Shown here: positions 43,415 through 50,445 of the stretch, one piece after another
Position numbering within the stretch: position 1 is the stretch's first letter
How the letters are laid out: the number at the start of each line of letters is the position of its first letter
Origin: Burkholderiales bacterium
Lineage (GTDB): Bacteria; Pseudomonadota; Gammaproteobacteria; Burkholderiales; Nitrosomonadaceae
Length of the DNA: 64,000 nt
Assembly (NCBI GenBank): GCA_024235735.1
Contig: JACKLU010000009.1
Coordinates: 24,667-88,666 of the forward strand
Reading direction: 5' to 3'
Translations under genes and position numbers: made by a program
The notes under the pieces: model-generated
The model's input: the letters and a program-made list of their open reading frames with translations, nothing else
The model's database searches: none
What the model was told of the DNA's origin: nothing

Positions 43415-43491
<77 letters not shown>

Positions 43492-44588: not shown

Positions 44589-45251
44589 GTGAATATGCAT
44601 CTTTTAGGCATAGGAATGACATCGCATCGAACGCGTATGCGTATGATTGAGCGCCTTCGCGCTCAAGGTATTACTGACGAAGTTGTATTATCGGTTATGG
44701 GCGCAATTCCGCGCCATCTTTTTGTCGAAGAGGCGCTAGCCAGTCGTGCATATGAGGATGTAGCTCTGCCGATTAACTACGGACAGACAATTTCCAGTCC
44801 ATGGATGGTGGCGCGTATGAGTGAGTTGTTGCGAGCCAATTCAGCGCTCAATAAAGTATTGGAAATTGGTACTGGCTGTGGTTACCAGACTGCTGTACTG
44901 GCAAGATTGGCGAGATTGGTTTATTCAATTGAGCGTATAGGGCCATTATTAACAAAAACACGCATTCGTTTACACAAACTTCAGGTCAGAAATATTCATT
45001 TGAAGCATGCTGACGGATTACTAGGGTTGTCTGATGCTGCTCCGTTTGATGGTATTATCATGACTGCTGTCACAACGCATATACCCGATACGCTGCTGGA
45101 ACAGTTGGCTGTTGGCGGAAAAATTGTTTTTCCCCGGGGCAGTCAAAAGCAGAATTTATGTATTATTGAAAGAAATTCGCAAGGCTACGCAGAAAAAATA
45201 CTGGAAGAGGTAAATTTTGTTCCCATTATATCCGGCGTTGTTAAAAAATAG
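44589..45251 (+). CDS. pcm: Protein-L-isoaspartate O-methyltransferase
   Basis: IPRHLFV, GQTISSP, VLEIGTGCGYQTAVL, APFDGII. Confidence 0.94.
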   Translation: MNMHLLGIGMTSHRTRMRMIERLRAQGITDEVVLSVMGAIPRHLFVEEALASRAYEDVALPINYGQTISSPWMVARMSELLRANSALNKVLEIGTGCGYQTAVLARLARLVYSIERIGPLLTKTRIRLHKLQVRNIHLKHADGLLGLSDAAPFDGIIMTAVTTHIPDTLLEQLAVGGKIVFPRGSQKQNLCIIERNSQGYAEKILEEVNFVPIISGVVKK

Positions 45252-45270
45252 TGATGCTGAGGAAATTGCG

Positions 45271-46308
45271 ATGGATAATAATCAAGAATTATTGAAAACC
45301 GGTATCCGAGGGATGTCGGTCGCTATAGTCTGGCTGTTATTTTTTTCATGGTTAATTACTGGTTGTGAGACGACAAAAGGACCGGCGCCTGTTGCTGAGC
45401 GTGCTGCTGTTCCGACTACTGTCCCAGAAAGGACGATGAATGTCCCGTCTTCTGAGCAAACTGATTCATTTTATATTGTGCAACGGGGGGATACGCTTTA
45501 TGGTATTGCGCTCAAGCATGGCATTAGTCAGAAGGATTTGGCAGAGTGGAATAACATAAACGACCCGCACTCCATTAGACCAGGGCAACGCATTAATTTG
45601 TCGCTGACTTCCGGAAACGCGGGGCCGGTGCTATTCGCGGTACCACATCAATCCACGATGCCGATCGTGGATTCGTCCTTGGACTTGACTGGAAATGCGG
45701 TTGATTCGACTCAATATCCGGCATTAGAAGGAACTGCATCGCAGGCAGTTAAGACATCACCAAAAGCCCTAAAACTGCCTTACTCGGAGCAGAATGTGGC
45801 GCTTTTGCAGCATTCTGCCAATCCTTCCTTGAGCGTAGCTGATAGAGAGCAGGTTGTTTCTTCTGGAGCGGGCACGCGAATCGAGAATGCACCCAATCCG
45901 CCTGTGGAAAGCACCAGTCTGGCTATGCATGCCCCGGCGGTGTCAAATTGGATCTGGCCGACAAGTGGTCAATTACTTTCTTCTTTTTCGGCTAATTCCA
46001 AGGGGCTGAAAATCTCTGGACAAATGGGACAAGCCATTGTGGCTACCGCTGCGGGGGAGGTGGTTTACAGCGGCGATGGATTGCGTGGATATGGCAATCT
46101 TATCATTATTAAGCATAATGATACCCTTCTAAGCGCATACGCGCATAACAGCAAATTGCTTGTAAAAGAAGGAGAAACCGTTACACAGGGACAACAAATT
46201 GCAGAAATGGGAAGCACTGATACTGATTCTCCACAGCTGCACTTTGAAATCAGGCGGCATGGGAAGCCGGTTGATCCCATGGAGTTTTTACCCGTAAATC
46301 CAGGATAA
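45271..46308 (+). CDS. nlpD: LysM/M23 lipoprotein NlpD
   Basis: Lipobox LITGC; LysM YIVQRGDTLYGIA; M23 GYGNLIIIKH...SAYAHN...LHFEIR; surE-pcm-nlpD synteny. Confidence 0.9.
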   Translation: MDNNQELLKTGIRGMSVAIVWLLFFSWLITGCETTKGPAPVAERAAVPTTVPERTMNVPSSEQTDSFYIVQRGDTLYGIALKHGISQKDLAEWNNINDPHSIRPGQRINLSLTSGNAGPVLFAVPHQSTMPIVDSSLDLTGNAVDSTQYPALEGTASQAVKTSPKALKLPYSEQNVALLQHSANPSLSVADREQVVSSGAGTRIENAPNPPVESTSLAMHAPAVSNWIWPTSGQLLSSFSANSKGLKISGQMGQAIVATAAGEVVYSGDGLRGYGNLIIIKHNDTLLSAYAHNSKLLVKEGETVTQGQQIAEMGSTDTDSPQLHFEIRRHGKPVDPMEFLPVNPG

Positions 46309-46327: not shown

Positions 46328-46786
46328 TTGCAATACAGCTTAAAGCCGCACAGGCAAGTTTCTGCAGTTGTTCACCTTAAACCTTCCAGACAACTGACAT
46401 GCATGCTCATTATGGCGCATTGCGCTGTTATACCTTTGGTGTGGCTATTGACAGCAGCGCTCAGCTTCAAGTTTGCGATCATGCTTATGGTAACGATCAG
46501 CTTGTATTACTATTTACGACAAGATGCGCTGCTTAATTTTCCGTGTTCAGTGGTCTCGTTCACATTAACTGATGGAAAAAGCTGTGTACTGAAAATGCGC
46601 AATGGCAGCGAGAAGGAATGTGCTGTCTTGGCAATCTCGTACGTTTCCGCTTATCTAACTGTGCTGATTCTGCAACCCGTTTGCTATTGGAATTTTCGAA
46701 GTGTGATTATTCTTCCGGATAGTGTTGATGCCGAGGAATTCCGGCGGCTAAGAATATTGCTTCGCTGGAAATGGAAGCATGTCTGA
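46328..46786 (+). CDS. YgfX/CptA-like inner-membrane protein
   Basis: Two N-terminal TMs; C-terminal ILPDSVDAEEFRRLRILLRW. Confidence 0.7.
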   Translation: MQYSLKPHRQVSAVVHLKPSRQLTCMLIMAHCAVIPLVWLLTAALSFKFAIMLMVTISLYYYLRQDALLNFPCSVVSFTLTDGKSCVLKMRNGSEKECAVLAISYVSAYLTVLILQPVCYWNFRSVIILPDSVDAEEFRRLRILLRWKWKHV

Positions 46787-46874: not shown

Positions 46875-47234
46875 TCAGCGCATTTTCCATTCTTTATAGG
46901 TTGTTTCGCGATCGAAATTGTCCCAGACATAGCTGGGTTGAACAATGGGTGTCGTTGGTACTGGGAAAGTTGCGATATCCAGTGCGCCTGAAAGACTGCG
47001 ACCAACACTGTGAAACAGACCGGTGAAAAGACCTGCGGTCATTCCATATGTTGCGCCATGTCTACGGCCGGTTATTATCATGGTTTTCGGAATTTCTACA
47101 AAACCCGTGACTGCGTTAGCTATACCGGTACCCAATTTTTCACCAACTTTTGTTGAGTAATTGTGCGCCATGACACTGGTGGGGAGAAGTGTCAATGCTG
47201 CGAATAGCAGAAAAATACGAATCAATTTATACAT
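46875..47234 (-). CDS. TIGR04073-like (exosortase-system-associated) exported protein
   Basis: KLGTGIANAVTGFVEIPK...GRSLSGALDIATFPVP; signal peptide. Confidence 0.65.
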   Translation of the reverse strand: MYKLIRIFLLFAALTLLPTSVMAHNYSTKVGEKLGTGIANAVTGFVEIPKTMIITGRRHGATYGMTAGLFTGLFHSVGRSLSGALDIATFPVPTTPIVQPSYVWDNFDRETTYKEWKMR

Positions 47235-47302: not shown

Positions 47303-47809
47303 TTAATCAGATTTTTGTTTCAAGAACCGCATAATCCTTTCAACTTCAGAACCTATCTGGTGATACGGATAATTTTGTTTTTCCAGTTCTGTTCTAATTA
47401 GAAAGGACATTTCCAGAACGAGCAGCTCCATCGTATTTTTATCACCTTTCGATATCGCCTCCTGATATTCTTTCTGGAAGCGGTTAATTGCGTCCATCAT
47501 TTTGGTATTGTTTTCATCAGTCGGCAAAATAGAGCTGAGTTCATATTTCAGATTGCTGGACAAATTGGCCGGTGTTTCATTTGTAACGGTCTGGGTATCA
47601 GGGGGGAAGAGTTTGTTTAAATGAATTGAACTCATGATTAGAACAACGCCGGAAAGTATTGTGGTGAGAATGAACCGCCAGATGCCGTATGTTTTTCCAA
47701 AAAAATGAATCGTTTTTGTTTTCTTGAAATTGAGGCGAATGAGTGCAGATAATCCAATAAAAAATATAATGGCCCCTGCGGCCATTATGAAAGGTACAAT
47801 CGGATTCAC
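47303..47809 (-). CDS. Hypothetical membrane protein (2 TM plus helical domain)
   Basis: 168-aa ORF, ATG start, two hydrophobic segments. Confidence 0.55.
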   Translation of the reverse strand: MNPIVPFIMAAGAIIFFIGLSALIRLNFKKTKTIHFFGKTYGIWRFILTTILSGVVLIMSSIHLNKLFPPDTQTVTNETPANLSSNLKYELSSILPTDENNTKMMDAINRFQKEYQEAISKGDKNTMELLVLEMSFLIRTELEKQNYPYHQIGSEVERIMRFLKQKSD

Positions 47810-48045: not shown

Positions 48046-48591
48046 TTACTGCGGTGGTGGGGGTGGTGGATTGCCAGGCGGCGGCGGTGGTGGCGTAAAC
48101 CCAGGGGGAGGGGGTAAAATTTTTACAGGCTGGGGTGAAACTGAAGATTGTTCATTGGAGAATCTCCCTGTGACGGGAACCCGGTGCCCTTTTGCATACA
48201 TGCATTGGATATAATTGATGTCATATCGATATTGAGCTTCATAACCCGAAGTTCTCGATGTGCCAGATCCGGCCAGACCTCCAGCGAGCAGGCCGGTTCC
48301 GGCGCCAATTGCGGCGCCTTCTCCACCGCCAAGCGCGGCGCCTGCCGCAGCACCTAAGGCAGCGCCTACAGCGGCGCTTTCAACACCACTGGAAACAGAG
48401 GCATCTCTTGGCGTGATTCCTCCAATTTGGGCATACGCATAACGCCTGCATTCGTAATCATCGTAGCGGAATTGTTCAAAATTTTTATTGGCGCCGGGTA
48501 ATACCATAATGCTCGGACTGTTGGGCAGGCTGACACAGGCAGCAAGGAATGTAGCAGCAACCGGATAAAGTAATTTGCGGATAGTAAACAT
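48046..48591 (-). CDS. Glycine-zipper lipoprotein with poly-Pro tail (copy B')
   Basis: Lipobox LAAC; GAALGAAAGAALGGGEGAAIGAGTGLLAGG; YIQCMYAKGH; PPPPGFTPPPPPPGNPPPPPPQ. Confidence 0.8.
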   Translation of the reverse strand: MFTIRKLLYPVAATFLAACVSLPNSPSIMVLPGANKNFEQFRYDDYECRRYAYAQIGGITPRDASVSSGVESAAVGAALGAAAGAALGGGEGAAIGAGTGLLAGGLAGSGTSRTSGYEAQYRYDINYIQCMYAKGHRVPVTGRFSNEQSSVSPQPVKILPPPPGFTPPPPPPGNPPPPPPQ

Positions 48592-48607
48592 ATTTCATAC
48601 CTCTTGA

Positions 48608-49030
48608 TCATTGTTGAGTCGGCGGTGCGGGATCTACCCGCTGCCAGCCACCGGGGCACTGTTTAACATAGGGGTAATAGCCTTCGGGGTTGGTGCAGTA
48701 GTACCAGTAATGCGTTTGTGATTGAGTCGCTGGAGGCGACTCTTGCTGCTGAATATAAACCGGTGGTGTCGGAGATACTATAACCGGCGGTGTTGCAGGA
48801 ACGACAATAGGAGGCGCACCATAAAAAGGTGGATAAAAAAAGGGATCATAATACCCATAACCACCATAACCACCATAACCACCATAACCACCATAACCAT
48901 CATAGAAACCTGGGTAACCTAAGTTTATTCCAAAACTGAAGTGATCAAAATGCCCGCCATGTGCAGTTGCAAAATGACTGGTAATAAGCGTCATTAGTGT
49001 AAAGATGGATAACAGGGAAAATTTTTTCAT
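48608..49030 (-). CDS. Exported Gly/Tyr/Pro-rich protein with C-terminal YYC-NP-GYYPY-C-GW motif (copy A')
   Basis: Signal peptide ending ATA|HGG; (GYG)5; YWYYCTNPEGYYPYVKQCPGGWQRV. Confidence 0.75.
   Translation of the reverse strand: MKKFSLLSIFTLMTLITSHFATAHGGHFDHFSFGINLGYPGFYDGYGGYGGYGGYGGYGYYDPFFYPPFYGAPPIVVPATPPVIVSPTPPVYIQQQESPPATQSQTHYWYYCTNPEGYYPYVKQCPGGWQRVDPAPPTQQ
48855..48899. repeat. In-frame 9-bp tandem repeat x5 (CCATAACCA), encoding GYG repeats on the minus strand
   Basis: Five perfect units counted directly. Confidence 0.9.
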
Positions 49031-49156
49031 AAAGGCATTCCTGCTTAAGCTGAAGTTAGGAAGTTATTAATGATAGCTGTTGATAGTATGTTCTGATCAA
49101 ATCATCCTTAAATCGAAGCTGTGAGTAAGTGGGAGATCAATGAGCCTGGTTTGCGT

Positions 49157-49687
49157 TTATCGGTATATTGGCGAAGGCGGATACCCTGGCGGGACAATAT
49201 TTCGACTGCTGCCATAGGCGTCATTCTGAAAGGTGCCGGCAACAGGAACATGATGACCTTTCGTATACATGCATTGTATATAGCCGTGATCATAGCGCTG
49301 TTGATGGATCAGGCCGGAAGTTCTGGCATTGTCCGAGCCAACTAATCCGCCGGCCAAAACACCCGTACCCGCACCGATAGCTGCCCCTTGTCCACCACCT
49401 AAAGCAACGCCGGCGATTGCACCCAGTGCAGCACCAATAGCGGCGCTATTAAAGCCGCTATTAACTACCGCCCCTTTTGCCGTAGTGCCGCCAATTTGTT
49501 CATGAGCGTATTGCCGGCAAAAATAATCATCGTGACGGAATTGATCAAAATTTTTTCCATCTCCAGGTAAGGCCATAACGCTCGGGCCATCTGGCATGCT
49601 AATGCACGCGGCTAAAAGTAGCAGGGGTAAGGCGCTAAAAATAAACTTCAAAATTGATCGCATCACCGATATCTCTTTTGCATTCAT
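49157..49687 (-). CDS. Glycine-zipper lipoprotein (copy B)
   Basis: ATG overlaps the upstream stop (TAATG); lipobox LAAC; paralogous to 48046-48591 (MALPG..KNF.QFR.DD..CR, YIQCMY.KGH.VPV.G). Confidence 0.8.
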   Translation of the reverse strand: MNAKEISVMRSILKFIFSALPLLLLAACISMPDGPSVMALPGDGKNFDQFRHDDYFCRQYAHEQIGGTTAKGAVVNSGFNSAAIGAALGAIAGVALGGGQGAAIGAGTGVLAGGLVGSDNARTSGLIHQQRYDHGYIQCMYTKGHHVPVAGTFQNDAYGSSRNIVPPGYPPSPIYR

Positions 49688-50259
49688 TATTGTGGTGTAG
49701 GTTGGGGTGCTACTTGCAGCCACCCTTCGGGGCATTGCTTGATGTATGGATAGTAACCTTCCGGGTTGCGGCAGTAATACCAGTAACTGGTTTGTACGGG
49801 TTGTGCTTGTGAAGTGGCAGGTGTTTCGCGCTGGATATAAATGACAGGCGCCGAAGGCGCAATGATTGAAGGAGAAGAATAATAATAACTACGCGGATAA
49901 TAATAAGCGCCAGGATAGCGATAGCGGTATGAATAAGGATAGCTGGGATAGCTATAGTATCCGGAGCCAAAAAAACCTGGCCCAAATAAGCCCGGGCCGT
50001 AGAATCCACCGAAGCCGATTCCAAGATTATAATGGCTGTGGCCACGATTAAAATGCTGATGGCCGCCGCTAAAACCACCGCCTCTTCCCGTGTCGCTGCC
50101 TCCGCCAATGACACTGCCTTCGCCATGACCACCTCTTGCCCACACTGGATGATTAATGGTTAATCCAGTCAATAGCAACATGAAGCATAAACCTGTCCAT
50201 TTTTTTGTATCAGTCCATGGATAGCTTTTGGTGGGGGTGCTGTAAATTGACTTTTCCAT
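49687..50259 (-). CDS. Exported Gly/Tyr/Pro-rich protein (copy A)
   Basis: Hydrophobic leader ending VWA|RGGHG; Y-rich middle; YWYYCRNPEGYYPYIKQCPEGWLQV. The start is uncertain. Confidence 0.75.
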   Translation of the reverse strand: MEKSIYSTPTKSYPWTDTKKWTGLCFMLLLTGLTINHPVWARGGHGEGSVIGGGSDTGRGGGFSGGHQHFNRGHSHYNLGIGFGGFYGPGLFGPGFFGSGYYSYPSYPYSYRYRYPGAYYYPRSYYYSSPSIIAPSAPVIYIQRETPATSQAQPVQTSYWYYCRNPEGYYPYIKQCPEGWLQVAPQPTPQ

Positions 50260-50445
50260 ATTTTCAGACTCGAAGATCATATGACGCGCATGTTAAAACG
50301 TGCAACCTGAATCAGAACTGAATGAAATTTCTATTTCCCAAAACCTGCGCTAAAACAGGTATCATAAAGCATTTGAACAGAATCACTGACAATCGTTTTA
50401 CCGTTATCGGTAATTTTTTTGTTTTATTCTTTAGGAGAAATTAAT

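Follow-up and report, generated by a model that had tools for sequence, protein, structure and literature searches.

A glycine-zipper lipoprotein encoded next to an exported disordered protein in Nitrosomonadaceae and other Proteobacteria: a possible two-protein envelope module

Glycine-zipper lipoproteins such as SlyB and YfgH have been recognized only recently as stress-induced organizers of the outer membrane. SlyB is described as one that keeps this membrane stable when cells are stressed (Janssens et al. 2024, Nature 626:617, as cited in PMC13070103), and YfgH has been proposed to form rings and to stabilize this membrane under stress (bioRxiv 10.64898/2025.12.22.696046). Here we describe a four-gene cassette found in a stretch of 64,000 nucleotides (hereafter the window) from a Burkholderiales bacterium of the family Nitrosomonadaceae (NCBI GenBank assembly GCA_024235735.1, contig JACKLU010000009.1, positions 24,667 to 88,666 of the forward strand). 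Judged by the names of the homologues and by the matching runs, this DNA belongs to a Nitrosomonas from activated sludge. The cassette is located on the minus strand, at positions 48046-50280 of the window, and its genes, in the order of transcription A', B', A and B, code for two paralogous pairs, each composed of an exported disordered protein (A', A) and a glycine-zipper lipoprotein (B', B). We know of no dedicated adjacent partner such as A in the case of SlyB. The reading that we favor, to which we assign a probability of roughly 45%, is that A and B are a two-protein envelope module with a structural or protective role, in which A would be docked on an oligomer of B through a small C-terminal module with two cysteines, referred to below as WYYC.

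A profile of A scanned over one genome per species located at least 574 loci, from which we took the best 80, 76 of them with enough downstream sequence. B was found immediately downstream of A and on the same strand in 62 of these 76 and, when the search was seeded with B, an A-type module was located immediately upstream in 69 of the 77 usable loci, i.e., the two genes were adjacent in 82–90% of the usable loci, over many genera and with a median gap of 26–38 nt. The B-seeded loci covered far more taxa than the A-seeded ones and belonged to Nitrosospira, Candidatus Nitrotoga, Herminiimonas, Janthinobacterium, Cupriavidus, Burkholderia, Paraburkholderia, Methyloversatilis and other Rhodocyclales, Thiobacillus, Gallionellaceae, Acidovorax, methanotrophic Gammaproteobacteria and a Nitrospiraceae metagenome-assembled genome (MAG), and the pair was also present in Nitrosomonas, Caballeronia, MAGs of Deltaproteobacteria and Rahnella. 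In the records of Burkholderia sp. YI23 the same pair is annotated as two 'hypothetical proteins'. The existence of hundreds of homologues with a conserved gene order rules out chance. Moreover, in two independent assemblies of Methyloversatilis (L092, 2309-3115, and L122, 2270-3127) the ORF of B extends beyond a spacer rich in Pro and Ala and takes in a WYYC module (WYYCASARKYYPYVNSCSEGWRVVP), with a separate A gene located upstream in each of them. The co-occurrence of A and B across Proteobacteria, which the original prediction had put forward as its first check, is therefore well documented. The clustering of all flanking open reading frames (ORFs) revealed no other conserved neighbor beyond the synteny seen in Nitrosomonas, indicating that the pair is self-contained. 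A B-like gene without a WYYC partner was found in plasmids of Klebsiella variicola (L162), with a small Pro/Lys-rich exported protein carrying two Cys encoded ~400 nt upstream.

We found 216 homologues of A. The protein (48608..49030, minus strand, 140 aa in the ORF list) starts with a predicted Sec signal peptide (MKKFSLLSIFTLMTLITSHFATA, before HGG; 48962..49030) that is apparent in the translation and in the alignment of homologues (alignment A1) and appears as a helix at residues 5-17 of the AlphaFold2 (AF2) model. A' (49687..50259, minus strand, 190 aa), a Gly/His/Tyr-rich exported protein predicted to be disordered and recognized from the ORF list, its homologues, alignment A1 and BLASTP against A, also has one (MEKS...NHPVWA, before RGG; 50137..50259), which aligns with the signal peptides of its homologues. 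The signal peptide would end at ATA, followed by HGG, in A and at VWA, followed by RGG, in A', the cleavage site of the latter being placed by the AxA rule. The low-complexity region of A (48815..48961) begins with HGGHFDHF and continues as a Gly/Tyr/Phe-rich sequence (G 33%, Y 22%, F 14%, with six [GS][YF][GS] motifs), and the predicted local distance difference test score (pLDDT) is below 50 at residues 31-66. Within this region, Tandem Repeats Finder detected 5.6 copies of a 9-nt tandem repeat encoding (GYG)n (48855..48904). A Pro-rich linker precedes the motif YWYYCxNPEGYYPY[VI]KQCPxGW, in which both Cys are invariant among the homologues; the whole C-terminal element, PPVYIQQ plus the WYYC module (HYWYYCTNPEGYYPYVKQCPGGWQRVDPAPP), spans 48611..48775 and was recognized by alignment A1, the model and the profile search. 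Its counterpart in A' (PVIYIQ plus the module, SYWYYCRNPEGYYPYIKQCPEGWLQVAPQP) is located at 49690..49851 (hidden Markov model match with E 5e-26; alignments A4 and A6).

In the AF2 model A is disordered besides the helix of the signal peptide and a small beta element at residues 109-132 (pLDDT 77-79), with the beta elements proper at 109-112 and 129-132. A had no match in Pfam or NCBIfam, and Foldseek against the PDB with its model returned nothing. Over 128 orthologues of A, the content in G, Y, F and W (about 43%) and the Pro-rich linker with PPVY[IV][QE] are conserved traits. The exported, Gly/Tyr/Phe-rich nature of A, its Pro linker and its two-Cys motif, all read from the sequence by the original prediction, were thus recovered; the conserved His-rich N-terminus of the mature protein and the PPVY[IV]Q element had been missed. 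The low pLDDT and the composition fit a disordered protein of the sticker-and-spacer type, and a prion-like, amyloid or condensate behavior of A would be a prediction from its composition.

The WYYC module follows the pattern W-Y-Y-C-x5-Y-Y-P-Y-V-x2-C-x3-W-x2-V-x-P, in which W, C, YYP, C and W are invariant; in A the invariant residues are W109, Y111, C112, G117, Y118, Y119, P120, C125, G128 and W129. The Cys pair probably forms a disulfide. A profile built with the two C-termini of the window was searched against 1.84 billion representatives and matched 2557 of them at E <= 0.001, 336 at <= 1e-10. The matches were mostly short proteins whose C-terminus is the module, and a few contain it in two or three copies. 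One of them (P0469, 302 aa) is A-like, with a signal peptide, a Gly/His-rich region, an aromatic/Pro region and WYYC, followed by a C-terminal OmpA domain (PF00691, E 5.7e-23). In several loci of Rhodocyclales and Gallionellaceae a third gene extends the arrangement to A-B-A'' (L113, 3106-3597; L121, 2863-3567; also P0377 and P0475), its product being exported, rich in His, Trp and Arg (WRGGRWHHGWHDGRRGWWW..GGIWYxYPxPVYPYPDPY) and likewise terminated by WYYC modules, one or two in number. In Nitrosomonas and related MAGs we also found a subfamily of long A proteins of 340-430 aa, with a strongly acidic Asp/Gly-rich N-terminal half (GGFDGGDFGGDYGG...) and a terminal WYYC (L031, L038, L039, L041, L051, L058, L059, L069 and L072). 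Several of these genes are followed by one for a lipoprotein of 57-59 aa (LLSGCWTLVAAGAGAYGGYKMKE.GYTLQ) with a mini glycine zipper of its own. This neighbor, together with the OmpA-domain fusion, points to a periplasmic site close to the outer membrane for WYYC.

The original prediction had described the motif and overlooked that WYYC by itself forms a widespread unit that is reused in other proteins. It had no relative in Pfam, NCBIfam or the PDB and no mention in the literature searched; the PDB sequence searches with alignments A1 and A4 gave only the 'YYC' of antibodies and low-complexity noise from prion and TIA1 proteins. The W-x20-W spacing, the central YY and the PPxY-like motifs nearby led us to consider a WW domain, a candidate that we rejected: hhalign of alignment A4 against a hand-made WW alignment (A5) gave a probability of 1.5% over 6 columns, and there was no Pfam WW match. 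The likeness may serve at most as a loose analogy for the binding of Pro-rich peptides.

B (48046..48591, minus strand, 181 aa in the ORF list) has a lipoprotein signal peptide (48535..48591) recognized in the translation, with the lipobox LAAC, an invariant C19 and Val at position +2. LAAC is also present in B', and a lipobox was found in 133 of 135 orthologues of B, always with a +2 residue other than Asp, which suggests sorting to the outer membrane. The lipobox Cys is followed by PSVMxLPGxGKxFEQFRxDDxxCRxYA, the Gly/Ala zipper hairpin, YDxxYIQCMYAKGHRVP, a variable linker and a Pro-rich tail. The hairpin of B (aa 68-110; 48262..48390), its SlyB-like part, was identified by a Pfam match (68-109), phmmer and Foldseek, and that of B' (about aa 69-110; 49334..49459) by a Pfam match (93-134 in ORF numbering) and alignment A2. 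Both proteins pass the cut-off of Gly-zipper_YMGG (PF13441; 30.2 bits each vs. 28.9), and B passes that of Gly-zipper_OmpA (PF13436; 29.6 bits vs. 27), where B' fails (23.9). Two further Cys of B, C48 and C130, are invariant in 81 homologues. The description of B as a lipoprotein with a glycine-zipper hairpin and two conserved Cys was accordingly right; the polyproline tail (PPPPGFTPPPPPPGNPPPPPPQ; 48049..48114), which is conserved in alignments A2 and A3, disordered in the model and present in 123 of the 135 orthologues, had escaped attention. The family is large (more than 3360 matches) and well conserved (mean column identity of 60-73%), and its members are named 'YMGG-like glycine zipper-containing protein' (NCBI), 'glycine zipper family protein' or 'hypothetical', with SlyB and, at JGI, YcfJ as automatic names. 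The AF2 model places helices at residues 38-55 and at 61-133, with the tail disordered.

The original prediction had also proposed an outer-membrane channel or pore, and nothing that we found points there, B being modeled as a small helical bundle without a barrel or CsgG-like domain. The corresponding curli-like explanation, in which B would be a pore that exports A and A would build surface fibers, amyloid or an adhesive, draws on the Gly/Tyr/Phe-rich repeat composition of A, with GYG repeats that vary between strains, and on the fact that glycine zippers can line rings or pores. However, besides the small helical nature of B, accessory secretion genes are not conserved nearby, an invariant Cys pair in the terminal module of A is typical of periplasmic folding, and the fusions of this module to B and to a peptidoglycan-binding OmpA domain lead to the periplasm, so that we consider a channel with its cargo very unlikely.

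Glycine-zipper proteins can also be membrane-active toxins (PMC5380434, PMC12955049), and the pair could in principle be a toxin with its immunity protein or a glycine-zipper bacteriocin like Caulobacter Cdz. This appears extremely improbable: both proteins carry Sec or lipoprotein export signals, type I secretion genes are not linked, there were no PADLOC or phage matches, and the conservation of B and its location on chromosomes and chromids are unlike those of polymorphic toxins. Equally, with regard to an origin in defense systems or mobile elements, PADLOC and phage matches were lacking, and the plasmid matches corresponded to chromids and megaplasmids.

The docking of A on B has to be weighed against several observations that speak in the opposite direction. 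A was found without B at three loci with a short A (L020, L063, L070) and in the long-A subfamily, and B without an adjacent A at L087, L091, L116, L127 and L155; WYYC may thus bind something other than B. The model of B is of moderate confidence (pLDDT 67, predicted template modeling score 0.46). The glycine zipper 2TM family (PF05433) failed with both lipoproteins (12.4 bits for B and 13.9 for B' vs. a cut-off of 24.2), and B is modeled as all-helical with a disordered tail and lacks the C-terminal domain of SlyB. The best PDB relative of B by sequence is indeed SlyB (7ojf, SlyB13-BamA; phmmer E 3e-5), and Foldseek with the model of B found no counterpart for the whole fold in the PDB, only the SlyB hairpin (7ojf_A; 47 columns, 40% identity, root mean square deviation 3.1, E 1.4). 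With the SlyB family model failing and the second domain missing, B is like SlyB at most in the hairpin, and the SlyB-type relation assumed initially stands for this part and falls for the rest of the fold.

The loci with A or B alone can be accommodated if B by itself is a stabilizer of the SlyB/YfgH type and A is a co-regulated periplasmic protein whose WYYC binds a third component, be it peptidoglycan, an outer-membrane protein or lipopolysaccharide. The many architectures of the module (2557 representatives, two or three copies, OmpA_C, His/Trp-rich third genes) and the minority of loci with A or B alone fit such an explanation well, and a module binding a third party would serve B equally in the Methyloversatilis fusion. 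The tight adjacency in distant taxa and the second pairing with a zipper lipoprotein are, however, easier to understand as a direct partnership, and we regard the third component as rather unlikely.

The His residues of A deserve separate consideration. In 113 of 128 A orthologues there is His within the first 30 mature residues, with three or more in 72 and a maximum of 14, and GGHY and GHGH repeats are present among the homologues. A could consequently be a periplasmic His-rich binder or buffer (of Cu, Zn, Ni, Mn or pH) that B holds at the outer membrane. Copper-dependent ammonia oxidizers and methanotrophs often have the pair, and in several copies, and at single loci there are metal-related genes. 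Specifically, in Nitrosomonas L017 (4320-6016) B is broken, with its first ~40 codons left, and an ORF for a CopA-like P-type ATPase comes next; in the enterobacterium Rahnella aquatilis a diverged A-B pair (L163, 1415-3004; megaplasmid CP042358.1) comes right after mntR and is transcribed divergently from an operon for a metal ABC transporter; and in L113 the neighbors include a gene of the Spy/ZraP type and one for an outer-membrane efflux factor. Against this, the length of the His tract is very variable and 15 of the 128 orthologues have no His there, no metal gene is a conserved neighbor, and the invariant parts of A are the aromatic/Pro elements and WYYC, not the His tract. We regard a role in metal or pH handling as rather unlikely, too.

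B is also broken at a second Nitrosomonas locus (L035, 4417-5769), where A and the 3' part of B are ~1 kb apart. Several Nitrosomonas MAGs have three or four separate A-type loci per genome (L024/L044/L053/L069; L036/L037/L068; L032/L033/L061; L063/L070/L078), suggesting that the A family has undergone a lineage-specific expansion in ammonia oxidizers.

Within the cassette, the four ORFs were found where they had been predicted and they do form two paralogous tandem pairs: A and A' are 56% identical in a C-terminal stretch of 59 aa (BLASTP, E 8e-21), and B and B' 58% over 170 aa (E 5e-44). No further copies of A or B were detected in the window with hidden Markov models built from the homologues. 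The A'-B'-A-B tandem is kept in about a dozen loci, including those of N. marina Nm71, N. aestuarii Nm36 and Nitrosomonas sp. Nm51. The ORF of A' extends in full over 49687..50280 (minus strand), with an upstream in-frame ATG at 50280 that would give 197 aa; the end at 50259 used before corresponds to the second in-frame ATG (MEKSIYS...). In the same way, B' is an ORF of 49157..49735 (minus strand), and its gene (49157..49663, minus strand, 168 aa) starts at a conserved ATG at 49663 (MRSILKF), located 23 nt past the stop of A' and aligned with the start of B. Another possible start, the ATG at 49687-49685, shares a base with the stop codon of A' (TAATG), the basis on which translational coupling had been claimed. 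The overlap is present here and absent from most orthologous tandem loci, so the sequence feature is real and a conserved coupling is not. The spacers measure 23 nt between A' and B' and 16 nt between A and B, the latter with an AAGAGG site. As TAATG is rarely kept and the ATG at 49663 is conserved, both pairs are closely spaced and probably not coupled by overlap.

The cassette is present in metatranscriptomes of activated sludge and bioreactors, at a depth similar to that of the flanking genes. Single RNA contigs run over A' and B' (49144-50043), over the spacer from B' to A (48964-49490) and over A and B (48227-48884 and 48313-48884), and one extends to 50344 on the side of A'. These contigs support the co-transcription of A and B, and they are supportive only, given that DNA carry-over is possible. 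A scan for promoters and terminators gave nothing beyond the level of shuffled sequences that could help to define the limits of the operon. The contigs also reveal that the low-complexity coding region varies in length between strains: one skips 36 nt in frame at 48864-48901, within the 9-nt (GYG) repeat of A, and the Gly/His region of A' (50087-50120) shows several small insertions that add up to 21 nt.

Directly downstream of B there is a gene for a predicted membrane protein of 168 aa without family (47303-47809, minus strand), which adjoins A-B in 26 loci, all of the Nitrosomonas type. It may share the transcription unit of B, since an RNA contig (X26, 47337-48152) reaches into the 3' end of B. 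Beyond it, a gene at 46875-47234 (minus strand) codes for a small exported protein of the NCBIfam family TIGR04073, 'exosortase system-associated protein' (92.7 bits vs. 50); it is syntenic in 21 loci, and the highest contig depth of one metatranscriptome was located here. Farther away, an ORF on the plus strand (46328-46786) matches Pfam Cpta_toxin (PF07254, 38 bits vs. 27.3), a YgfX/CptA-like membrane protein, immediately after the gene of an NlpD-like LysM/M23 lipoprotein (45217-46308). A tRNA-Pro (GGG; 43415-43491, plus strand) was the sole RNA gene detected in the window by Rfam and ARAGORN.

The working of the module that we favor, with A docked on B, can be outlined as follows. B would be an outer-membrane lipoprotein with its SlyB-type hairpin inserted in, or oligomerizing at, the inner face of the outer membrane, the two conserved helices that flank the hairpin probably being joined by a disulfide between their invariant Cys, and with a disordered linker and the polyproline tail after them. 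A would be exported by Sec and remain intrinsically disordered, from its His-rich start through the Gly/Tyr/Phe-rich middle to the Pro-rich linker with PPVY[IV]Q, and only the C-terminal WYYC module of ~30 residues, probably stapled by a disulfide, would be folded. WYYC would dock A onto B, at the helical part or at the Pro-rich tail, so that the oligomer of B may carry a brush of sticky disordered A chains under the outer membrane. Such a scaffold could stabilize the envelope or buffer stress, like SlyB or YfgH with a built-in partner. A bolder version, which we consider quite unlikely, would make the module a phase-separating or hydrogel system of the periplasm: rings of B would nucleate a layer of disordered, His/Tyr-rich A under the outer membrane, which would condense in response to pH or metals (Cu, Zn, Ni) and protect the envelope mechanically or chemically. 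WYYC would then represent a family of small domains, novel and widespread, that are stapled by a disulfide and serve for docking to outer-membrane lipoproteins.

If A binds B, WYYC would stand as a new docking domain for lipoproteins of the outer membrane, A would be one of the rare disordered proteins dedicated to the periplasm, and a tractable handle on the envelope robustness of wastewater nitrifiers would be gained. The idea is directly testable, given the natural fusion of B with WYYC and the occurrence of the pair in hosts that can be cultivated (Cupriavidus necator, Burkholderia, Rahnella). Neither the names in the sources nor Pfam, NCBIfam, the PDB or the literature searched assign a function to the system, in agreement with its initial description as uncharacterized, and we found no study of the A-B pair in this literature. 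A paper on a Stenotrophomonas type IV secretion system proved irrelevant to the pair. Among the induced genes of a Collimonas transcriptome there is a 'glycine zipper family protein' whose membership in the B subfamily could not be confirmed, and that of the 'glycine zipper family protein' of Vibrio rstAB-eptA is likewise unverified.

When the pair is compared with the systems already described, B shares with SlyB (PCP) the lipoprotein nature and the Gly/Ala-rich helical hairpin, and differs by the two flanking helices with their invariant Cys pair and by the polyproline tail. YfgH and YcfJ of E. coli are, like B, small outer-membrane lipoproteins of the glycine-zipper clan. However, we found no A-type partner described for them, and the N-terminal FEQFRxDDxxCR and C-terminal YxQCMYAKG set B apart as a subfamily; this subfamily is common in Betaproteobacteria (nitrifiers, Burkholderia, Cupriavidus) and methanotrophs and, different from SlyB and YfgH, comes with a dedicated disordered partner, rich in His, Gly and aromatic residues, that ends in a two-Cys module. 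The curli system (CsgA plus CsgG) also pairs a lipoprotein with an exported, repeat-containing and aggregation-prone protein, but B has no CsgG-like fold or family match, A has no curlin repeats and the accessory genes are not linked; actually, neither CsgG-family nor curlin matches were obtained for A, A', B or B' in Pfam and NCBIfam, nor a channel fold by Foldseek. Bacteriocins of the Cdz type differ as well, the genes described here having Sec and lipobox signals, no linked conserved neighbor and no PADLOC matches. The coacervating GHGxY proteins of the squid beak and the [G/S]Y[G/S] domains of the FUS type resemble A in composition. The resemblance is an analogy without homology, A being short, predicted to be periplasmic and probably anchored by a folded module. 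The Pfam models PF13441 and PF13436 cover only the zipper of ~42 residues, leaving out the Cys helices, the Pro tail and the partner. Judged by its sequence, B is a distinct lipoprotein subfamily within the glycine-zipper families of Pfam, and the combination of a zipper lipoprotein clamped by Cys and provided with a Pro tail, a disordered partner and a new small module appears to be undescribed.

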